IMG/VR virus record: IMGVR_UViG_3300037483_000080
Span: 1 to 43,844 of that record
Direction: 5' to 3' (one strand)
Source: a virus
Lineage: Duplodnaviria > Caudoviricetes
Length of the DNA stretch: 43,844 nt
A program made the translations under genes and the position numbers. This document shows positions 1 to 43,844 of the stretch, piece after piece (the first letter of the stretch is position 1; each line of letters opens with the position of its first letter). Below the pieces are notes generated by a model. It made no database searches. It was not told the DNA's origin and saw nothing but the letters and a program-made list of their open reading frames with translations.

Positions 1-127
1 GAACTGCTGCGGCTGCGCTGTTCGGTACGGCTGTAGCGGCATGCGTCGTCACGTTCGGATCGCTGGGTGCAGCCGCGAACGGCACGGCAGGTTCTGCTCC
101 GACCGTTGACGGCACGATCGGGTATTT
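1..127. repeat. Terminal direct repeat (copy 1), identical to 43718-43844; contig is circular
   Basis: Exact 127-nt identity between the two ends; one ORF reads through the junction. Confidence 0.97.
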
Positions 128-287
128 CGGCGGGCTTGGTTCGATCAACTTGGGCGCTGGCACGGTGCATACCCTGTTGGCCGGCACGCCATACGTTGGA
201 CCTGGCGAGTTCATCGGCTACAAACACACCGCCGGAACGATTCTTAGCGGCTTCCGCGTGACCATCGCGTACGTGATGGGGAAGTAA
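1..287 (+). CDS. 3' part of putative capsid decoration/cement protein (142 aa in total; begins at 43576 and crosses the junction)
   Basis: Own translation across the junction, ending ...NGTAGSAPTVDGTIG...RVTIAYVMGK* (TAA 285-287); follows the major capsid gene; Gly/Thr/Ala-rich. Confidence 0.7.
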   Translation, partial: TAAAALFGTAVAACVVTFGSLGAAANGTAGSAPTVDGTIGYFGGLGSINLGAGTVHTLLAGTPYVGPGEFIGYKHTAGTILSGFRVTIAYVMGK

Positions 288-298
288 GCGACCATGAA

Positions 299-376
299 AC
301 GCACGGATAGGGTTGCAACCCGAAAAGGCGTAGTCCCCCGCGCCTTCCGTGCGTCGTCGGGGGAATCATGGGGGAC
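299..376 (+). promoter_or_regulatory. Candidate cis-regulatory RNA: three-way junction with anti-SD loop upstream of the glycosyltransferase
   Basis: P1 ACGCACGGA(299-307)/TCCGTGCGT(346-354); P2 GGGT/ACCC (310-321); P3 AGGCG/CGCCT (326-345); loop complementary to CGGGGGA (358-364) and to the SD GGGGGAC (370-376). Confidence 0.6.
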
Positions 377-384
377 ATGACGAG

Positions 385-1572
385 ATGAACATCAACTGGT
401 TTTCAAATGCGCCGTGGGCAGCCACGGGCTACGGCGTGCAAACAAAATTGTTCGCGCCGCGCCTAAAAGAACTGGGCCACGACATTGCGATCACGGCGTT
501 CTATGGCCTAGAAGGATCGGTCATCAACTGGAACGGTATCCAGATTTACCCGCGTTGGGCGCACGGCTACGGCCTGGACATCATGGCGGCGCACGCGAAG
601 CGCCAGAAGGCGGACATCGTTTTAACGCTGCTGGATGCGTGGGTCTTCGATGCAAACTCATTACGCGCGCAGAACGTCAAGTGGGTGCCGTGGTTCATGG
701 TGGATGGTGAGCCTTTGCAGTTGGCGGTGTACAGGCAGATCAAGGAATCGTTTCGTCCGATCTGCTGCTCACTGAACGCGCAACGGGCCTGCAAGTTAGC
801 CGGACTTGACGCGCTCTATGTGCCGCTCGGCACGGATTGCAGCGTGTACAAGCCGCTGGGCGACAAACAGGCTATTCGTGGCATGATGAGGTTTCCAACC
901 GACAAATTCATCGTCGGCATGGTGGCAGCGAACAAAGACCCTGGCGATCGCAAATGCTTCTTTCAGCAGATTGAAGCGTTCGCGCAGTTCCACCGCAAAC
1001 ACCCGGACACATTTCTGTACATGCACACGCAGCATCAGGTACAGCCGGGCGTAGGTTATGCGGCGCTGAACCTGAAAGAGTACGCGGAGTATCATGGACT
1101 TGTCGAAGAAAGTGATTTCGGCTTCTGCGATCAATACTGCTACATCCTCGGCTTCTCGGATCAGCACATGGTCAACACCTACAACGCCTTTGACGTACTC
1201 CTGAACGTATCGCGCGGCGAAGGCTTCGGCGTGCCGATCGTTGAGGCGCAAGCGTGCGGTACGCCCGTCATCATTGGCGACTGGACAGCGATGGAAGATT
1301 TGTGTTTCGCTGGCTGGAAGGTCGGACGCAAAGAGGCAGCGCGCTCGTGGAACGGGCAAGGCTCGTATCAGTTCACGCCTACCGTCGAAGCGATTACCGG
1401 GCGGCTAGAATTGGCCTATCGCACATCTGGCAAAAAATGGCCGGAGGCGGCAGAAGGCGTCAAGGTTTACGATGCCGACTACATCACCGAACATCACTGG
1501 AAGCCAGCGATTGCAGCGCTTCAAGACATGCTCAGCGGGCAGGATACCGAATTGAAGTTGGTGAAGTTCTAA
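385..1572 (+). CDS. GT-B fold glycosyltransferase (GT4 family)
   Basis: N-terminal TGYG motif; C-terminal SRGEGFGVPIVEAQACGTPVI (E-x7-E) motif; ATG 385 with GGGGGA SD. Confidence 0.92.
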   Translation: MNINWFSNAPWAATGYGVQTKLFAPRLKELGHDIAITAFYGLEGSVINWNGIQIYPRWAHGYGLDIMAAHAKRQKADIVLTLLDAWVFDANSLRAQNVKWVPWFMVDGEPLQLAVYRQIKESFRPICCSLNAQRACKLAGLDALYVPLGTDCSVYKPLGDKQAIRGMMRFPTDKFIVGMVAANKDPGDRKCFFQQIEAFAQFHRKHPDTFLYMHTQHQVQPGVGYAALNLKEYAEYHGLVEESDFGFCDQYCYILGFSDQHMVNTYNAFDVLLNVSRGEGFGVPIVEAQACGTPVIIGDWTAMEDLCFAGWKVGRKEAARSWNGQGSYQFTPTVEAITGRLELAYRTSGKKWPEAAEGVKVYDADYITEHHWKPAIAALQDMLSGQDTELKLVKF

Positions 1573-1805
1573 TGAACATGCTAACTGGATTTGTCTCACG
1601 TCGAACCGATGGATTATTCGATTGGTACAAGTTCGATGTAAAGCCACCTTCATCTGGCGATGCTTCCATTGGCTGTAAATTGGCTGGTATTGTACGAGAG
1701 GTACATCCAGCGTGTAACGATAACGGCGGTACACTGGCGATTCTGAATTACCCTCCGGGTACAAATATATGGGTTGAGATAGTCAATGAAAATCCAACTC
1801 CTTAA
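1572..1805 (+). CDS. Hypothetical protein (77 aa) in the modification cassette
   Basis: ATG overlaps the GT4 stop (TAATG); end overlaps the next start. Confidence 0.6.
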   Translation: MNMLTGFVSRRTDGLFDWYKFDVKPPSSGDASIGCKLAGIVREVHPACNDNGGTLAILNYPPGTNIWVEIVNENPTP

Positions 1806-3051
1806 CCCGCCAATCCACCACTACACCGGGCGGCAGTACCGCATGATGCCGCCGATCAACCTGCCGACGATCGCGGCGCTGCTGTCTGCCGCCGGCCACT
1901 ACGCTGAGGTAATCGACCTCGAAGCGTTGGCCGTCACGCCAGAGCGGCTTGAGCATGCGTACAAAGCGCAGCGCGAGTCATGGCCGGACGTGATCGGTAT
2001 CACGAGCATGACGATCACTTCACGCGGTGCAATGGATACCGTGCAAGCGCTGCGCCGTGCTGGCTTCGACGGCAAGATCATCGCGGGCGGCATCTACCCG
2101 ACGGAGAACGCGCAGAAGTGTATCGATGACTGGGGCGTTGATCTCGTTGTTGTCGGTGAGTGCGAGGGCAACGTTGTAGAGATATTCGAGAGGGGTGCGC
2201 CTGGCGTACATCTCGGCCAGCGTATGCCGATCGAGGACATCCCTGCACCCGACTGGCAGCACCACAACCCGCCGATCGGCGATTACAACGGCAACACGCG
2301 CTTGATCAATCCGAAGCCGGGCATCAGCATGTGGTCACGCGGGTGCCCGTTCCAGTGCGTGTTCTGTAGTGACAATCTCTTCAATGGGCAGCCGATCCGC
2401 TATCGCCCGCCGGCGCTCATTGAGCAAGAGATGCGCGAACTCAAGCGGCGCGGCTGCCTGAATTGCTATGTGTACGACGATGAGCTTGTCGGCACGAAGT
2501 TGCCGCATGGCTGGATCGAGGACATCGCCGATCGCATCGAAGACTTGCATTTGCCGTACATCACGCAGGGGCACTGCAACCGCAACACCATCACGCCTGA
2601 ATCAATGAGCCACGTCAAGCGCAGCGGTTGCAGGGTGATCTTTTGGGGCCTGGAATCGTTCAGCGAAAACGTGCTCCTGGCGATCAAGAAACGGATCAAA
2701 GAAGTGGACATCTGGCACACGCTCAAGGTGTCGCACGAAGCCGGGATCGAGAACGCCGTATTCACGATGGTGGGCAACTACAAAGAGACTGTAGCCGATT
2801 TGGAGCACACCTACAACTGCTTGAAGAAAGCGCACGCCGATGGCCTGATCCAATACCGGCAAACAACCGTCTGCACAGGGATGCCTGGGACACCGCTTGA
2901 GAAGATCATGAAGGCTGAGGGCTGGTGGACAGAGCCGCCGGAGTACGGGCCGCAGATGGCGCAAGTCTACAGCCCGACGCCGTGGTTGACGATGCAAGAG
3001 ATCATGTACTGGGCGAACAAATTTCAGGAAACGTGTCCGGGGGTGCCATGA
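1786..3051 (+). CDS. Cobalamin-binding radical SAM enzyme (class B methyltransferase-like)
   Basis: B12-binding domain (PPINLPTIAALL...PDVIGIT...IIAGGIYPT...VVVGECE), then SRGCPFQCVFC (CxxxCxxC), YDDE and GLES motifs. Confidence 0.92.
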   Translation: MKIQLLNPPIHHYTGRQYRMMPPINLPTIAALLSAAGHYAEVIDLEALAVTPERLEHAYKAQRESWPDVIGITSMTITSRGAMDTVQALRRAGFDGKIIAGGIYPTENAQKCIDDWGVDLVVVGECEGNVVEIFERGAPGVHLGQRMPIEDIPAPDWQHHNPPIGDYNGNTRLINPKPGISMWSRGCPFQCVFCSDNLFNGQPIRYRPPALIEQEMRELKRRGCLNCYVYDDELVGTKLPHGWIEDIADRIEDLHLPYITQGHCNRNTITPESMSHVKRSGCRVIFWGLESFSENVLLAIKKRIKEVDIWHTLKVSHEAGIENAVFTMVGNYKETVADLEHTYNCLKKAHADGLIQYRQTTVCTGMPGTPLEKIMKAEGWWTEPPEYGPQMAQVYSPTPWLTMQEIMYWANKFQETCPGVP

Positions 3052-3281
3052 ATAAAGCAACGAAGGTAAGGCAGGCTGAAGTAAAAACTGAAGCGGCGGT
3101 AGAAGAAGTAGAAACTCGCGGCAACACCGCAATCATGCGAGTAGTCACGCCGTACACCGACGACATGATGACGGTACTCGAAGAACGCCTCGACGCTCAA
3201 TTTGATGATGGCTTCAAAGTTGCCGCGTGTGTTCCGTACGGCGTCGATCGCATGGTCGTCATTTTGCAGAAGGCCGCATGA
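3048..3281 (+). CDS. Hypothetical protein (77 aa)
   Basis: ATGA overlap with the upstream stop; plausible composition. Confidence 0.65.
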   Translation: MNKATKVRQAEVKTEAAVEEVETRGNTAIMRVVTPYTDDMMTVLEERLDAQFDDGFKVAACVPYGVDRMVVILQKAA

Positions 3282-3463
3282 GTAATAAAAGTGCGCCTTT
3301 CGGCGCACTGCTGGATAACATCCTATCAGATATTCAATCGGGCGCTATATCATTCGCCACGGATTTACGGGTCGCTCGGCCTCTGACGCCACTTAATCGG
3401 AGTGTGATGTCTAGCGATAAATCAATCCAGCGAATATATTATAACACGGTTTGTCAAGCATGA
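3278..3463 (+). CDS. Possible 61-aa translational-coupling ORF antisense to the candidate ncRNA
   Basis: ATGA overlaps at both ends; the peptide is largely the translation of terminator and promoter DNA. Confidence 0.35.
   Translation: MSNKSAPFGALLDNILSDIQSGAISFATDLRVARPLTPLNRSVMSSDKSIQRIYYNTVCQA
3284..3309 (-). terminator. Intrinsic terminator
   Basis: Minus strand AGTGCGCC-GAAA-GGCGCACT followed by TTTATT. Confidence 0.8.
3284..3431 (-). ncRNA. Candidate ~148-nt structured ncRNA (unrecognised family)
   Basis: Extended -10 just upstream; 5' GCUGGAU pairs with AUCCAGC directly before an intrinsic terminator; nested internal helices; no useful minus-strand ORF. Confidence 0.7.
3438..3446 (-). 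promoter_or_regulatory. Extended -10 promoter TGTTATAAT
   Basis: Predicted +1 (G3431) is 7 nt downstream and is the first base of the closing stem. Confidence 0.6.
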
Positions 3464-4113
3464 ACAAAGCGATCGTTACATTCGGCGTAGGACCACACCG
3501 CGAATACCTTAGCATCGCGCGCCCATCGTTTCAGGCGTTCGCTAAGCGGCACGGCTACGACTATTTTGAAGCCGATCAAATCGGGAGGCTGCGCCCGCCG
3601 GCCTGGTACAAGGTGAAGTGCTTGATCGATCTGCTTAAGCAGTGTGACCTGGCGGCATTCTTCGGCTGCGATCTCGTCGTCGTTGACGGGCGCGATGACT
3701 TTCCGCTACCTGATACCGATTGGTGGCAGGCTATGGTCACGCACCACACGCAATGTGGTGACGTTCCGAATGACGACATGTGGATTTGCAAGCGTGACAT
3801 GCTGCCGTGGCTTGAGCGTGTGTGGGCGCTTGGTGGCAAGTACCTAAATCATGGGTGGTGGGAGCAGGCTGCGCTCATGGAGTTGATGGCCTACGACCCG
3901 GCGATTAATAATTTTCCGACGCATTGCAATGACATCTGCAACGAACTCTACCAGCATACGCTCTGGTTGCCGAATGAGTGGAACGTGCATTGCTGGGACA
4001 AGCCGCAGCCGTCGCATACGCGCATTCAGCACGCGACGATGTGGCCGGACAGGGCGTCGATTATGAGGCAGTGGGCGCACGAAGCTGAGGAGTGGATCGG
4101 TGAGATACGTTGA
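3460..4113 (+). CDS. GT-A glycosyltransferase, GT34 (GMA12/MNN10)-like
   Basis: FAKRHGYDY, PAWYKV, WWEQAAL and LPNEWN motifs; usual DxD appears as GCD. Confidence 0.75.
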   Translation: MNKAIVTFGVGPHREYLSIARPSFQAFAKRHGYDYFEADQIGRLRPPAWYKVKCLIDLLKQCDLAAFFGCDLVVVDGRDDFPLPDTDWWQAMVTHHTQCGDVPNDDMWICKRDMLPWLERVWALGGKYLNHGWWEQAALMELMAYDPAINNFPTHCNDICNELYQHTLWLPNEWNVHCWDKPQPSHTRIQHATMWPDRASIMRQWAHEAEEWIGEIR

Positions 4114-5170
4114 TCCCGTCGGCAAGATTCTAGCGCACGTTGACCGCCTGGCCGCGTGGAAGCAGGGCACGCACGCAGCGCCGATCAACATCGAGTGGGA
4201 CTTGAGTAACCGCTGCTCGTTGGGTTGCGCGGGTTGCCACTTCGCTTACACGCACACGCGCGGGCCGCTGGCCGGCAAGCGCGACAAGCCGCATGACTTC
4301 GTTGACGGCGGAGATATTGCAGACACGAACATGGTCAAGCGCGCGCTGTACGAAGCGAAGGAAGCGGGCGTGTTGTCAGCGACGTGGACCGGCGGCGGTG
4401 AGCCGACATTGCATCCAGATTTTGACGAGATCGTGCGCTATGCAGATTCGCTTGGCCTGCGGCAGGGGCTGTACACGCACGGCGGGCACATCAACGAAGC
4501 GCGCGGGAAGATGCTTGGCGATGTGTTAGATTGGATCGTTGTGTCGGTGGATTGCGTTGACGCTGAATCATACGCGGCCTACAAGGGCGTGTCTCAAAAC
4601 TGGTTTAGCAAGATGCTGGCTGGCGTGTCTAATCTGCGGCATGGTAAATCAGTCGTCGGTGTGTCGTTCTTGCTGGGCAAGGACAACTGGACGCAGGCGC
4701 GCGACATGTTAAAACTTGCGCGAGAGATGGGCGTTGACTACGCCACGTTCAGGCCGATGATTGAGTACAGCATGGACGATCCGTCAATGCCTGCCGGTAA
4801 CGTATCGTGGATTACGCAGGCGCTGCCCATGCTCGAATTGCTGTCTAATCAACCTGACGTTGAGTGCATCCCTGAGCGGTTCATCGAATACCGGGACTGG
4901 CAATACCGGCGCGAGTATGGCGCGTGCTACGGCATCCGCTTTAACACCGTGGTCACGCCGAACGGCAAGGTATTCGTATGCGTCAATCGGCGCGAGTTTG
5001 CCGGGAGCGAGTTGGGCGATCTGTCGGTTGAATCGTTCGCCTCTATTTGGGCGCGGCACCCCGGCGAATGGCGCGACTTCGAGAAATGCCGTGTGCTGTG
5101 CCGCTTGCACATGATCAACAAAACGGTGTGGGATGTTCACCGCCCGCGCCAGCATGTGGAGTTTGTCTAA
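4100..5170 (+). CDS. Radical SAM enzyme with C-terminal SPASM/twitch Fe-S domain
   Basis: LSNRCSLGCAGC, TGGGEPTLHP; C-terminal ACYG...VTPNGKVFVC...LGDL...IW...C..C. Confidence 0.92.
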   Translation: MRYVDPVGKILAHVDRLAAWKQGTHAAPINIEWDLSNRCSLGCAGCHFAYTHTRGPLAGKRDKPHDFVDGGDIADTNMVKRALYEAKEAGVLSATWTGGGEPTLHPDFDEIVRYADSLGLRQGLYTHGGHINEARGKMLGDVLDWIVVSVDCVDAESYAAYKGVSQNWFSKMLAGVSNLRHGKSVVGVSFLLGKDNWTQARDMLKLAREMGVDYATFRPMIEYSMDDPSMPAGNVSWITQALPMLELLSNQPDVECIPERFIEYRDWQYRREYGACYGIRFNTVVTPNGKVFVCVNRREFAGSELGDLSVESFASIWARHPGEWRDFEKCRVLCRLHMINKTVWDVHRPRQHVEFV

Positions 5171-5757
5171 TGACTGTCACGCCGCGTACCCCAGGCATGG
5201 ACGATCTCGTACAGCAGTTGCGCGAGTTGGCCGATGTCGGCACCGCTGATTTCGTCATCGCATCAGACACATACTGGTCCTACGAGCATTTGCAAACTGC
5301 TCTCGATCGGCACCGCATCACAATTTACCAGCAGGAGTTGGAGCAGTGGCCGACGTTGAACACGTCAAACGTGTTCGTGTACCAGGAATACCGCGCGCCA
5401 ATCGGCAACCTTGAGAGCGGAACCGCAGTATTCAGCGTGCAGCAACTAAACGGCGGCACGGCACCCGCCTACACCGTGGACTACAACACAGGCGTGATCA
5501 CGTTCACGGCTGACACGGCAGGCACTGCCTACATGTTGTCTGCGCGCGCCTACGATGTCTACGCGGCGGCTGCGGATGTGTGGCGCGCTAAGATGGCGAA
5601 TGCGGCAAAGTATTTTGACTTCTCGACTGATAATCACAGTTTCAAAAAGTCGCAGTTCAAGTCCAATTGTTTAGAGATGGCTAAGTATTTCGACAGTCAG
5701 AGTATGACTAACTCGTTTAGCGTGACAACTATCACGCGCTCGGACGTGAACGCATGA
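5170..5757 (+). CDS. Head-tail connector (neck) protein, putative
   Basis: First gene of the neck block; YDVYAAAADVWRAK motif typical of adaptors. Confidence 0.6.
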   Translation: MTVTPRTPGMDDLVQQLRELADVGTADFVIASDTYWSYEHLQTALDRHRITIYQQELEQWPTLNTSNVFVYQEYRAPIGNLESGTAVFSVQQLNGGTAPAYTVDYNTGVITFTADTAGTAYMLSARAYDVYAAAADVWRAKMANAAKYFDFSTDNHSFKKSQFKSNCLEMAKYFDSQSMTNSFSVTTITRSDVNA

Positions 5758-22856: not shown

Positions 22857-23243
22857 CTACGTCTCGCACACCCACGCCCCGTGCATCCCGCGCCCGACCG
22901 CGCCCCAGCGCTGCGCCACGTCGAAACTCACCTCCCCGATCACGTTGCCGCTCCGCATCCAATCACGTGTGGCGGCGTCGCCCGCGCAGTCAAACACGAG
23001 CAAGCGCGCAGTGTTCCCGTTCCACCTCACGTCCACGACCTCGCCGATCCTGGCGCAGTCCAGCACGGCGATGTAGCCGTCGTAGTCGGCGTGGTTGGCT
23101 GGCAGCGTGTACGCGGTGCGGCCCGGCACCGAGCGGTTGGAGATGACGGCGCGGGTTGGGGCGGCTGCATACTGACTCAACACGCCCCGCTCGCACTCAG
23201 CCGACGACGCCAGCACGGCGATAGCGATCAATAGTTGGAGCAT
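22857..23243 (-). CDS. Secreted protein, RlpA/DPBB-like fold (putative)
   Basis: Signal peptide; YIAVLDCARIGEVV...LLVFDCAG. Confidence 0.55.
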   Translation of the reverse strand: MLQLLIAIAVLASSAECERGVLSQYAAAPTRAVISNRSVPGRTAYTLPANHADYDGYIAVLDCARIGEVVDVRWNGNTARLLVFDCAGDAATRDWMRSGNVIGEVSFDVAQRWGAVGRGMHGAWVCET

Positions 23244-24409
23244 TGCGCCTCGATCACGCACTGGTACAACAGCGGTGGAACTGCATTTCCTATTACTGTA
23301 CAAGCGAGACGATCTTTGTCCGGTAGGATGTACGAATCCGGCAACGACTGGAAGCGGGCCAGCGCGCGCGGCGTCATCTTAACGACGCGGCCAGCGGAAA
23401 GCCACGCGCGCCCTATTGCGGCACTGTGACCAATATCGACCGTGACATACGGTTCTTCATCGGCCTTGAATGCGGCGTTAGTTGCGTTGCCATTTGAGAT
23501 TATAAACGCCCGCGCTGGCCGCTTCTCCATGCTGCCCGTCATAGTGTAGATCGGCTCGTCACTCACGCAAGCGGTAACGCTTGCGCCGTAGTCGTTCAGC
23601 GTGCCGTTGATGACGAAGGCGCGGGGCAGGCCGCCCGTTGGTGTTGCTGCAATCGTGTTTGATGGTTCGTCTACTGCGCATACGCCTTGACCAATGAACG
23701 ATCTGTCGAGTCCGCTTACATTTGCGACCATGATAAAAGTGTCTTGTAATTCCTGAGGCAGTCTTTCCAGTTGCCAGTCCGCGAACTTAGACACCGGCAG
23801 CGTGTCGATCAAGTCCTCGATCGCGGCGTACCACCCGATCCACGGCAGGCGCGTGTCAAACATCGGAGCCAACTTCGACGGCTCAGCATGCGTTGCAACT
23901 GGCCTACGCGGCTTGCCGTGCAACTTCGCTACCAAGATCAGACGCTTGCGCGTCTGCGGCACGCCATAGTCAGCAGCGTTCAGATGCCAGTAATCCACGC
24001 GGTAGCCGTTGCGGTTGAGCGCTTCGAGGATGTGGGCGAACGCCGTAAACGTGCGGTAGCCGTACACGTTTTCAAGCGTGAAGATGTCCGGCAGAAAGTG
24101 ATTGATATACGCGCACGTCGCGTCAGCCGTGGCGATGTCCTCAGGCGATTCCTCGCCATTCGCTTTCGCGTTGCTGGCGTTCGTGCACACCGGCGATGCG
24201 TGGAGCACATCAGGGCGCGGGAGTGACATCATGAGCGCAGTGTCAAGCACGTTGCCCGTGATAGTGTTGAAGCAGTTGTTGCGGGCAACTTGTGCAATCT
24301 TGTCATCGTACTCAACGCCGAACAAATGAGTTAGTCCAGCAGCGCGAGCGCCGACGCCGACACCCTCGCCGCCACTGAATAGTGTTGCAATTGTTGTTAC
24401 TGCTCGCAT
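23228..24409 (-). CDS. DNA (cytosine-5) methyltransferase
   Basis: Motifs I LFSGGEG, IV ASPVC, VI LENV, VIII QTRKR, IX ARFQSLP, X IGNAV. Confidence 0.93.
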   Translation of the reverse strand: MRAVTTIATLFSGGEGVGVGARAAGLTHLFGVEYDDKIAQVARNNCFNTITGNVLDTALMMSLPRPDVLHASPVCTNASNAKANGEESPEDIATADATCAYINHFLPDIFTLENVYGYRTFTAFAHILEALNRNGYRVDYWHLNAADYGVPQTRKRLILVAKLHGKPRRPVATHAEPSKLAPMFDTRLPWIGWYAAIEDLIDTLPVSKFADWQLERLPQELQDTFIMVANVSGLDRSFIGQGVCAVDEPSNTIAATPTGGLPRAFVINGTLNDYGASVTACVSDEPIYTMTGSMEKRPARAFIISNGNATNAAFKADEEPYVTVDIGHSAAIGRAWLSAGRVVKMTPRALARFQSLPDSYILPDKDRLACTVIGNAVPPLLYQCVIEAQCSNY

Positions 24410-28040: not shown

Positions 28041-28370
28041 CTAGTCGTCGTCTTCATTTTCATCCGTGACAATATCGGTCGCCATGCTACAGCAAAACGG
28101 GCAAGCCTCGTCGCCGTTGTCGATCCACGTCTCGCCGCAGTCGTTACACGTTCGCTCTTCAATCATGATCTCCTTTGTTTGCTCCCACTTCGCTTCCAGC
28201 GCTTCATCAGCCCTGGTCCGGTACACCGCCGCTTCGTCGCGCTCAAGCGTGCGCACGTCCTGCCACGCGCCCATGAACAACCGGCGCAGCACGTAGCAGC
28301 CGCGCCAGTCGTCGTACAGTTGCCGCGCTGTTTCGGCGCGGAGGTCGGCGAGTGTGTCGGTGAGGGTCAC
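28041..28370 (-). CDS. Hypothetical protein with C-terminal Zn ribbon
   Basis: CNDC...CPFC; GTGA overlap. Confidence 0.65.
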   Translation of the reverse strand: MTLTDTLADLRAETARQLYDDWRGCYVLRRLFMGAWQDVRTLERDEAAVYRTRADEALEAKWEQTKEIMIEERTCNDCGETWIDNGDEACPFCCSMATDIVTDENEDDD

Positions 28371-29182
28371 GACAGCATGTCGATCAAGCGATCGATTTGC
28401 GCGGCCCGTGCGGCGGCCCATGCGTCGTCATGTTCGGCGGCCCGTGCGGCGGCCCATGCGGCGGCCAGTGCGGCGGCCCGTGCGGCGGCCCATGCGTCGT
28501 CATGTGCGTCGTCATGTGCGTCGTCATGTGCGGCGGCCCGTGCGGCGGCCCATGCGTCGTCATGTTCGGCGGCCCGTGCGGCGGCCCATGCGTCGTCATG
28601 TTCGGCGGCCCGTGCGGCGGCCCATGCGGCGGCCAGTGCGGCGGCCAGTGCGGCGGCCAGTGCGGCGGCCAGTGCGGCGGCCCGTGCGGCGGCCAGTGCG
28701 GCGGCCCGTGCGGCGGCCAGTGCGGCGGCCAGTGCGGCGGCCCGTGCGGCGGCCCATGCGTCGTCATGTTCGGCGGCCAGTGCGGCGGCCCGTGCGGCGG
28801 CCAGTGCGGCGGCCCGTGCGGCGGCCAGTGCGGCGGCCAGTTGATCATCGGTCGCTTCTCCGTTTGCGTAACGCTCGGCGATGTCGCAAGCGTTGATGCT
28901 GCGCTGATCAGGATCGCTTAAAAGTTTCAACGCCTCACGCGCGCACCATACCGCGAACAATCTCAGTGTTCGCGCGTTAATAAATTCTTCGCGGCATACG
29001 ACCCATAACCGATCCTCCGCCGGGCATTCTTTTATTTTGAGGATTTCGATAACTGTTCCCGACCATCCTTCCCGCAAAAAACCGCTATTGATTTGCTCTC
29101 CATATTTGTCAATTCCAGTTACCGGATCGTAGCACGGTCCTAGCGCTCGAATGTCGTTGATAGTCAGTTGCTTGAGTTCCAT
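28367..29182 (-). CDS. Imm5-like helical protein with long Ala-rich tetrapeptide repeat
   Basis: RLFAVWCAREAL...AERYANGEAT..QLAAA, then AA(L/R/W)A and (A/E)HDD units; AGGA SD. Confidence 0.75.
   Translation of the reverse strand: MELKQLTINDIRALGPCYDPVTGIDKYGEQINSGFLREGWSGTVIEILKIKECPAEDRLWVVCREEFINARTLRLFAVWCAREALKLLSDPDQRSINACDIAERYANGEATDDQLAAALAAARAAALAAARAAALAAEHDDAWAAARAAALAAALAAARAAALAAARAAALAAALAAALAAALAAAWAAARAAEHDDAWAAARAAEHDDAWAAARAAAHDDAHDDAHDDAWAAARAAALAAAWAAARAAEHDDAWAAARAAQIDRLIDMLS
28400..28840. repeat. 12-nt-period coding tandem repeat
   Basis: Units such as GCGGCGGCCAGT, GCGGCGGCCCGT, GCGGCGGCCCAT, GCGTCGTCATGT. Confidence 0.95.
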
Positions 29183-29186
29183 TTCG

Positions 29187-29420
29187 TTATCCTTCCTCGT
29201 CCTCTCGGTCCGCAGCGACTCGCGCCATTTCAGCAGTAAACTCAACCAACATGCTGTAGTACCCGATCATGAAAGAGATTTGATTGGCGTAAGACGATTC
29301 CCTGTTTTTCAAGGCATTGTACATTTTTGAGCACTCCTTAAAGCGCTCAGAGAATGTTTTAAGGAGTGCTTTAAGGCTAATGACCGCTACGTTATCCTTT
29401 TCGTTCATCTCATTCTCCAT
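29187..29420 (-). CDS. Hypothetical protein
   Basis: Operon position; start uncertain. Confidence 0.55.
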   Translation of the reverse strand: MENEMNEKDNVAVISLKALLKTFSERFKECSKMYNALKNRESSYANQISFMIGYYSMLVEFTAEMARVAADREDEEG

Positions 29421-30301: not shown

Positions 30302-30394
30302 GATTGCTCCTCTCAATTTCAATGCCGGGGCGTCGTTTGCGGAGTCGTGCTATATGTATCCGCATCAACACGGGCGCTCCAGCATGATGATAAT

Positions 30395-30556
30395 CTACCC
30401 GGCCCCGTACCCGGCCCCGTACCCGTCCCCGGCCCCGGCCCCGTCCCCGTCCCCGGCCCCGTACCCGTCCCCGGCCCCGTCCCCGTCCCCGGCCCCGTAC
30501 CCGTCCCCGGCCCCGTCCCCGTACCCGGCCCCGTCCCCGTCAATATCATGGTTCAT
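30395..30556 (-). CDS. Gly-rich G-(D/Y/A) repeat peptide (53 aa)
   Basis: MNHDIDGDGAGYGDGAGDGYG...; 6-nt periodic DNA; GAGGAG SD. Confidence 0.65.
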   Translation of the reverse strand: MNHDIDGDGAGYGDGAGDGYGAGDGDGAGDGYGAGDGDGAGAGDGYGAGYGAG

Positions 30557-30941
30557 AGTCTTTCGCTCCTCTGATCGAAATTTCTGCTGCGTCCGTGCAC
30601 AGCGTAATCTCGCAGTCCTCAGTGAGATGTTTTCGCAACTCCGGCGCGCCGATCTTGCTGGATGGATCGAGTCCATAGACAGAGACGCCGCTCAAAAATG
30701 CAGCGCCATTCGCCGGCCTCCAATACCACAGCCTGCGAGAATCGGTCAGCAAACACTCACGCCCGTTATAGCTCATCAACACGCCTGCGTGGACGCCTGC
30801 GTCATGACAGCGGACGATCACGTACTTGCCAATCATTCCGTTATCGATCTTAGGCTCGTGTGCTCCATGCCACTGAAGATTTAGCAACTCGCCGATCTGC
30901 TTGATCTGCCCTAGAGTCAACTCATCGATGTTCATTTTCAT
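30546..30941 (-). CDS. DUF6948-like phage protein
   Basis: IGKYVIVRC..AGVHAG.L...LTDSRRLWYW. Confidence 0.78.
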   Translation of the reverse strand: MKMNIDELTLGQIKQIGELLNLQWHGAHEPKIDNGMIGKYVIVRCHDAGVHAGVLMSYNGRECLLTDSRRLWYWRPANGAAFLSGVSVYGLDPSSKIGAPELRKHLTEDCEITLCTDAAEISIRGAKDYEP

Positions 30942-43575: not shown

Positions 43576-43844
43576 ATGAGCGACTTCAATGTTCAGATTG
43601 CATCGTTTGACATCGGGCCGGTCGTAGGCGCGCAGAGCATCCCGGCTTTCCGCGTGCCCGAAGAGGGTGGCGGCATCACCGTGATCGATGGTCTGTTGAC
43701 ACTCAACAACACCGGCGGAACTGCTGCGGCTGCGCTGTTCGGTACGGCTGTAGCGGCATGCGTCGTCACGTTCGGATCGCTGGGTGCAGCCGCGAACGGC
43801 ACGGCAGGTTCTGCTCCGACCGTTGACGGCACGATCGGGTATTT
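43576..43844 (+). CDS. 5' part of the putative capsid decoration protein (continues at 128-287)
   Basis: AAGGAG SD; ATG 43576; frame open through the junction. Confidence 0.7.
   Translation, partial: MSDFNVQIASFDIGPVVGAQSIPAFRVPEEGGGITVIDGLLTLNNTGGTAAAALFGTAVAACVVTFGSLGAAANGTAGSAPTVDGTIGY
43718..43844. repeat. Terminal direct repeat (copy 2)
   Basis: Identical to 1-127. Confidence 0.97.

Follow-up and report, generated by a model that had tools for sequence, protein, structure and literature searches.

Why would a tailed phage keep two glycosyltransferases (GTs) and two radical S-adenosylmethionine (SAM) enzymes among the genes for its own particle? The question is raised by the virus record IMGVR_UViG_3300037483_000080 (Duplodnaviria; Caudoviricetes), analysed here over its full 43,844 nt (the window), in which a GT4 glycosyltransferase, a B12-binding radical SAM enzyme (B12 enzyme), a GT34-like protein and a twitch-type radical SAM enzyme (twitch enzyme) are encoded between the major capsid gene and the neck genes. 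An earlier note, made from the DNA alone, had suggested that this cassette builds a glycan on the particle and tailors it by radical chemistry, or else modifies side chains directly. Virion glycosylation with radical sugar tailoring is, on comparative grounds, the probable explanation, and it is the best-supported one because GT4 is linked to the capsid gene, the slot is otherwise filled by sugar enzymes, the capsid tails are rich in terminal Ser/Thr compared with a sister clade, and no DNA-priming enzyme was detected. What did not stand is the central place given to the radical SAM pair, which is an optional module and not the cassette core. The cassette itself is real, conserved and widespread; its gene order, enzyme families, purifying selection, GT4-capsid linkage and RNA leader can be read directly from the genomes.

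The linkage emerged from a capsid-anchored survey of the best 80 of 350 IMG/VR matches, which avoids selecting on the enzymes; the capsid alignment had been made from enzyme-anchored loci and is clade-biased, and some matches are the same contigs. All 76 loci with at least 800 nt downstream had a GT4 gene following the capsid gene (4 further loci were too short), as did 55/55 after removal of redundancy. In the 29 complete non-redundant intervals, GT34-like genes were found ten times, the B12 enzyme three times and the window's twitch family once. Further variable genes of the slot, from a scan of 41 representatives of 76 clusters, encode UDP-galactopyranose mutase, DegT aminotransferase, formyltransferases, GNAT, sulfotransferase, FkbM and CmcI-type methyltransferases, GT2/Anp1, NAD epimerases and another radical SAM family. 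By gene content the slot is thus a glycan-building one, in which GT4 is the core and the two radical SAM genes are an optional addition. The invariant GT4-capsid linkage speaks against a cassette that makes a diffusible or lipid-linked small molecule, such as a counter-defence metabolite or a signal. BlsE, DesII, AprD4 and BtrN are enzymes of antibiotic pathways (roles partly from the accessible part of PMC13598754), as such an idea would have it, but the window is devoid of scaffold-building or export genes, and we consider this explanation very improbable.

In an enzyme-anchored survey we took the best 80 of 363 IMG/VR twitch matches (56 non-redundant) and 48 B12 loci (35 non-redundant). Clustered structural genes were present in 53/56 twitch loci and 32/35 B12 loci, and a GT lay within 1.5 kb in 47/56 and 35/35, respectively; structural-looking open reading frames (ORFs) were seen by eye in L026, L029, L072, L104 and L131 as well (L numbers denote surveyed loci). 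The linkage of the cassette to structural genes, on which the earlier note had built, holds across the survey, with the phage G001 discussed below as the exception. The head modules are of different kinds (SPP1-like, HK97-like, lambda/Mu-like), which means that the same placement has come up repeatedly in backbones that are unrelated. Of the B12 loci with 2.5 kb downstream, 18 of 24 carried a second radical SAM gene, which belonged to the window's family in 2 and to another in 16, never to both; NAD epimerases, seen in B12 loci, occurred in none of the 56 twitch loci.

This recurrence also bears on the idea that the cassette remodels a host envelope glycan for superinfection exclusion or receptor masking. 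In their accessible parts, PMC7029224 and PMC9723712 mention radical SAM and GT genes of viruses, interpret them as genes acting on the host surface and propose such a role for the GT clusters of pelagimyophages and methanogen viruses. The enzyme set resembles O-antigen and S-layer glycan pathways, sugar ABC-transporter genes occupy the slot of L210, L211 and L233, and the RNA leader could permit separate regulation. However, the cassette lies in the late virion operon across several unrelated head modules, its 55/55 retention next to the capsid gene is not moron-like, and scans of the window detected no integrase and no membrane GT or flippase, which leaves this a rather improbable reading. 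Gtr-type serotype-conversion cassettes are characterized by a membrane GT/flippase and a temperate lifestyle; here, the cassette enzymes have no membrane segment and the window has no integrase match. All four enzymes are net acidic and without transmembrane segment (maximal 19-residue hydropathy at most 1.26).

The GT4 product matches PF00534 with E 8.8e-9 (35.6 bits against a curated cut-off of 26.4), and it carries the EX7E motif and residues E279, E287, R189 and K190, which are invariant in 56/56 sequences. By these features it belongs to the GT4 (GT-B) glycosyltransferases. A hydrophobic, strand-like motif at its C-terminus (window positions 1552-1572) was present in 19/34 cases with the B12 gene next and in 2/63 others, a pattern recognized post hoc. 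When 56 GT4 cores were placed in a quick tree, the B12-next label had to change at least 7 times, and the tail motif went with the B12 gene in five sister contrasts. Since the codons of the motif are variable, selection on it appears to act at the protein level. Hypothetically, the B12 enzyme docks on this C-terminal strand; alternatively, motif and B12 gene may be linked by recombination. GT4 also occurs fused to an FkbM methyltransferase, C-terminally in a cluster of 18 ORFs (L208:8236-10140) and N-terminally in L197:11372-13423, and a group I intron match lies at the start of the GT4 region in L125:3347-3524.

The GT34-like protein had no Pfam, PHROG or NCBIfam match. Its ESM features were 0.98 similar to those of viral clusters in which 48-87% of the members carry GT34 (PF05637), its family profile gave weak PDB matches to WbbM (E 0.011) and XXT5 (E 0.016), and a homologue matched PF05637 below the cut-off (E 0.004). 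The DxD motif reads G-x-D, the first Asp being replaced by Gly, likewise in 55 of 117 homologues.

In the B12 enzyme (PF02310, E 6.6e-16; PF04055, E 8.4e-17) an N-terminal B12-binding domain precedes a CX3CX2C core, whose residues C187, C191 and C194 are invariant in 117/117 sequences. By this domain criterion we class it with the cobalamin-dependent radical SAM enzymes of class B type; it shares domain and core with the methyltransferases MgmA/QCMT, GenD1 and TokK and with AprD4. For class B chemistry we follow the accessible part of PMC13598754, and we predict that the B12 enzyme binds cobalamin and is a C-methyltransferase. Its best PDB matches were MgmA (9ccb) and AprD4 (6fd2), and it scored below every NCBIfam equivalog cut-off (MgmA, BchE, HpnJ, AprD4 and others; best 68.6 bits against at least 251). 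It has 204 homologues. Its close relatives (at least 46%) turned up exclusively next to this phage GT4; distant cellular relatives (L141-L143, L149, L151) also lie among GTs and epimerases. An intein interrupts the B12 enzyme in L127-L130 (L129:8306-10678) and in P0150, with a LAGLIDADG domain in L129.

The twitch enzyme matches PF04055 (E 5.1e-12) and PF13186 (E 2.5e-5; 24.9 against 21.5 bits). A full two-cluster SPASM domain has a seven-Cys motif. After the core of the window's enzyme only four Cys (C276, C294, C330, C334) are invariant, in 119/119 sequences, consistent with one auxiliary cluster, so that we assign it to the twitch type; of the earlier SPASM/twitch label the second half is kept. 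BlsE was the top fold match and DesII the third. Both act on sugars. The fold does not fix the substrate, because SkfB scores similarly; identity to BlsE, DesII, BtrN and SpeY was 13-17%, and the BlsE model gave 40.8 against a cut-off of 400.

MgmA and SkfB suggest a further explanation, in which the GTs glycosylate the virion while one or both radical SAM enzymes act on virion protein residues by MgmA-like C-methylation or an SkfB-like cross-link. A GT neighbour is near-constant for both families (47/56 twitch and 35/35 B12 loci), the slot in which both are found otherwise holds sugar enzymes, and the distant cellular relatives of the B12 enzyme keep similar company. Moreover, the twitch enzyme has only four auxiliary Cys, and the GT4 tail motif tracks the B12 gene. 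We therefore judge action on protein residues to be unlikely, although it is the foremost of the rivals.

If a virion protein is glycosylated, which one is the acceptor? In this clade, Ser is the last residue of the capsid protein in 43/57 cases, and Ser or Thr stands among the last two residues in 52/57; the products of ten further genes from these loci have a terminal Ser in 0-5 of 12-54 sequences. For comparison, three GenBank phages that lack the cassette were used to seed a sister capsid clade. Its capsid tails are shorter and end in Ser in 1/27; no GT, radical SAM or epimerase profile match was found in 80/80 of its loci with flanks of up to 6 kb. In phages that lack the small gene, so that GT4 comes next after the capsid gene, Ser or Thr is retained within the last two residues in 4 out of 6 distinct tails, which implies that binding a decoration protein is not the tail's sole role. 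The capsid and tail-tube proteins of the mycobacteriophages Che8 and Corndog end in Ser as well, and the 2023 work of Freeman reportedly places the glycan on the terminal serine. Mycobacteriophage glycans are located at the C-termini of capsid and tail-tube proteins in what is accessible of PMC12619734. Taken by sequence, the capsid C-terminal Ser/Thr is likely to be the glycan acceptor.

Several observations weigh against virion glycosylation with radical sugar tailoring. The contrast of capsid tails is one clade against one clade; the window's own capsid protein ends in Thr-Gly and that of the cultured Microcystis phage Mae-JY09 in Ala, and among B12-anchored loci the capsid tails end in Ser in 15/24. 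The closest solved relative of the B12 enzyme, MgmA, is a protein methylase. GT4 distances track those of the adaptor as well as those of the capsid protein (rho 0.45 and 0.42, 32 loci). Furthermore, the 109-kb phage G001 (L127-L130) carries a GT4-B12 module outside the virion operon, in the order GT4-B12-epimerase-rSAM (radical SAM)-GT4, surrounded by genes for NrdD and DNA methylases; the G001 capsid protein ends in Asp, and GT2 and epimerase genes precede its terminase genes.

The setting in G001, beside NrdD and DNA methylases, would also suit a cassette that hypermodifies DNA before packaging, with a C5 methyltransferase and the radical SAM enzymes as an oxygen-independent priming system for base glycosylation. 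The window does contain a stand-alone C5 cytosine methyltransferase gene, and late expression suits pre-packaging modification, as the accessible part of PMC13326640 has it. Known glycosylation of DNA pyrimidines requires a pre-existing hydroxyl (PMC13326640, same part). Pfam and PHROG scans of 35 and 47 ORF entries yielded no TET/JBP, thymidylate synthase, kinase, polymerase or integrase, an absence that is unproven as many ORFs are without family; neither the 82 ORF entries nor the genome search gave a TET/JBP, thymidylate-synthase-like or kinase match, and thymidylate synthase occurred in 0/5 related records including G001. The C5 methyltransferase gene lies 18 kb off on the other strand, while genes of DNA pyrimidine glycosylation cluster, according to the part of 10.1101/2023.12.21.572611 that is accessible. 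In addition, the cassette enzymes are acidic, and DNA modification leaves the capsid-tail correlation unexplained. The view of the earlier note that DNA modification fits less well is retained in so far as no TET/JBP, kinase or polymerase match was found; the C5 methyltransferase had gone unmentioned there. This rival, too, appears unlikely.

To place the cassette among known systems, we compared it with the virion glycosylation of mycobacteriophages, described for Che8 gp108-110, Corndog gp35-38 and Myrna (Freeman et al. 2023, through the accessible parts of PMC12619734, PMC12363180, PMC11652166 and PMC13445384). In the literature covered, virion glycosylation of tailed phages is documented only for a few mycobacteriophages. 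Those systems use phage-encoded soluble GTs, as here, and Corndog has a methyltransferase and three GTs within its head module, like the placement in the window. However, neither the GT4 nor the GT34-like profile of the window matches Che8 gp108-110 or Corndog gp36-38; the matches to Che8 gp109 and Corndog gp37 (E about 1e-6 to 1e-8) came solely from GT2-like clusters found in other relatives. Because its GTs are not homologous, we did not file the cassette as a Che8-type member, though it would work alike. The Che8 and Corndog regions examined contain no radical SAM gene, whereas the window adds two, and an RNA leader. By analogy, the cassette is likely a chemically richer version of mycobacteriophage virion glycosylation.

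The same GT4 family is encoded in the same slot of the cultured phages Mae-JY09 (PP395641), phiPsal1 (Pontimonas), S-CBS4 (Synechococcus) and TJE1 (Tetrasphaera), there without radical SAM genes. The slot of Mae-JY09 reads capsid, small gene, RNA leader, GT4 (44% identity), GT-like gene, NAD epimerase and adaptor, and that of phiPsal1 capsid, GT4, methyltransferase and GT2; in the uncultured MW202801 a gene of the twitch family comes after the capsid gene. These cassettes carry no functional annotation, and no GenBank phage record matched the B12 enzyme or the GT34-like protein. A literature search on phage radical SAM, cobalamin, GT and structural genes, virion glycosylation and twitch enzymes retrieved no description of the combination, in line with the statement of the earlier note that no such phage was known to it; subscription papers and supplements were mostly outside the reach of the search. 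The ORFs of Mae-JY09 (L001) look very GC-rich for a Microcystis phage, and its host label may merit a check.

The 97-nt gap in front of the GT4 gene, just ahead of the stretch treated in the earlier note, matches the Rfam family int-alpA (RF02996) with 38.2 bits (gathering threshold 35.8; E 8.7e-7); at the gathering threshold the family was found in 3/14 GT4 loci and 0/6 control loci. The leader folds into a three-way junction (299-354), and its loop TCCCCC (334-339) can pair with GGGGGA (359-364) to form a pseudoknot or with the likely ribosome-binding site (370-375). Using a pattern devised after the sequences had been seen, we found this junction in 42/63 distinct leaders, taken from 80 loci with a gap of 50-170 nt, compared with 12/630 shuffles and 1/54 control regions. 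Between the second hairpin region and the 20 nt past the outer stem the mean pairing was 6.4 bp, against 4.6 (maximum 5.1) in 1000 partner swaps, uncorrected for relatedness. Given an anti-Shine-Dalgarno-like loop and a further purine run ahead of the start codon, we infer that the leader forms a pseudoknot that frees the GT4 ribosome-binding site, or blocks the site when open. Going by the family name, the usual context of int-alpA RNA is presumably integrase and alpA genes; here it precedes a glycosyltransferase gene in a virion operon, and the leaders show covarying loop-to-downstream pairing. A literature search on int-alpA RNA found no paper on this cassette combination. With the leader before GT4, the RNA class gains a context and a mechanism that are concrete and testable.

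Altogether, we propose that the four genes form a cytoplasmic pathway glycosylating a virion protein, most likely at the capsid C-terminal Ser/Thr. GT4 would act as priming transferase with a host NDP-sugar as donor, and the GT34-like protein would extend the glycan. The twitch enzyme might oxidise, epimerise or deoxygenate the sugar, either as free NDP-sugar or protein-bound, taking the place held in sister phages by NAD-dependent epimerases, while the B12 enzyme, possibly docked on the C-terminal strand of GT4, would C-methylate the sugar with host cobalamin in the place held there by O-methyltransferases. Through the leader pseudoknot, the enzymes would be translated at a much lower level than the capsid protein. 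The purpose is likely a diversifying surface coat in anoxic habitats, which could aid adhesion, stabilize the particle or help it to evade host proteases or capsid sensing.

A more far-reaching version, which we hold to be possible but doubtful, is that phages of anoxic habitats build a C-methyl-branched glycan on the capsid tail by means of a GT4-docked cobalamin radical SAM enzyme and its twitch partner, drawn from an interchangeable tailoring library and dosed by an anti-Shine-Dalgarno pseudoknot, so that radical and B12 chemistry, in enzyme families found almost only in phages, diversifies a virus surface. In a large uncultured clade, the core gene linked to the capsid gene belongs to a GT family different from that of the mycobacteriophages, and an acceptor site is predicted. 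If the proposed pathway is true, the optional radical SAM modules would offer new catalysts of branched- or deoxy-sugar formation, and the cultured member Mae-JY09 allows direct testing.

The window encodes terminase, SPP1-type portal, scaffold, major capsid, an end-wrapping small gene, neck and siphovirus tail genes. With a 127-nt repeat shared by its two ends, the record can be read as a circle of 43.7 kb; IMG/VR lists it under direct terminal repeats, although CheckV puts its completeness at 53%. A single sequencing run is listed as containing the cassette, a sediment metagenome from which the record may derive. The cassette slot is bounded on the left by the capsid gene and the small end-wrapping gene and on the right by the neck genes (Table 1). 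A homologue of the small gene follows the capsid gene in 23 of the 29 complete non-redundant intervals, and neither it nor the window's gene had a family match in Pfam and PHROG scans; its earlier label as capsid decoration gene is a positional one.

The four enzymes are all present between the capsid-side gene and the neck genes, as had been reported, but they are not chained directly, since three small ORFs separate them while preserving the chain of overlaps. These ORFs have a low GC content at third codon positions (GC3) and are flanked by short direct repeats at gene starts, the two adjoining ORFs 3048-3281 and 3278-3463 by a 12-nt imperfect repeat. In the closest relatives, L134, L135 and L136, the four enzyme genes are contiguous and the small ORFs are missing, the 77-aa ORF 1572-1805 from L134 and L136. 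The low GC3, the lack of tblastn matches, the direct repeats and the absence from L134-L136 indicate that the three ORFs are likely recent insertions outside the conserved cassette. Ratios of nonsynonymous to synonymous substitution (dN/dS) against L136 were 0.13 for GT4, 0.04 for the B12 enzyme and 0.11 for the twitch enzyme; for the GT34-like gene dS was saturated against L134. The cassette genes are real and under purifying selection.

Table 1. Positions of the cassette and of the features discussed with it in the window.
Feature	Position	Strand	Evidence and remarks
Major capsid protein, 288 aa	42697..43563	+	phrog_267, E 1.2e-6; 350 IMG/VR relatives; C-terminus Thr-Gly
Putative decoration gene, 5' part	43576..43844	+	Follows capsid gene; continues over 127-nt terminal repeat
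Putative decoration gene, 3' part	1..287	+	Cluster c4
int-alpA-type structured RNA leader	299..375	+	Rfam RF02996 at 300-363
GT4 (GT-B fold) glycosyltransferase, cassette core gene	385..1572	+	PF00534
77-aa ORF, likely inserted at GT4/B12 junction	1572..1805	+	GC3 0.36; no tblastn match in fetched loci; flanked by 6-nt direct repeat
B12-binding radical SAM enzyme, class B type	1786..3051	+	PF02310, PF04055
Two small ORFs (77 and 61 aa: 3048-3281, 3278-3463), likely inserted at B12/GT-A junction	3048..3463	+	GC3 0.56 and 0.43; no tblastn match
GT34-like protein of GT-A fold, 217 aa	3460..4113	+	ESM features, weak PDB matches
Twitch-type radical SAM enzyme	4100..5170	+	PF04055, PF13186; four auxiliary Cys
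First neck gene (putative head-tail adaptor), right slot boundary	5170..5757	+	Precedes head-closure and tail-completion genes; cluster c7 in 39 loci
C5 cytosine methyltransferase, stand-alone	23228-24409	-	E 2.1e-34

Some further gene arrangements were recorded. The capsid slot of L210, L211 and L233 (e.g. L211:10333-13370) holds genes for a sugar ABC-transporter permease, a periplasmic binding protein, a GH42-like protein and a tRNA-synthetase-class-I-like protein. L234 has a second sugar cluster (L234:259-7489), with other twitch and B12 radical SAM genes, upstream of a head-morphogenesis gene, and also carries GT4 and GT34-like genes after the capsid gene. In the early region of the window, low-complexity repeat ORFs, Ala-rich and with Gly-Asp/Tyr repeats, lie on the minus strand at 28367-29245 and 30319-30676.

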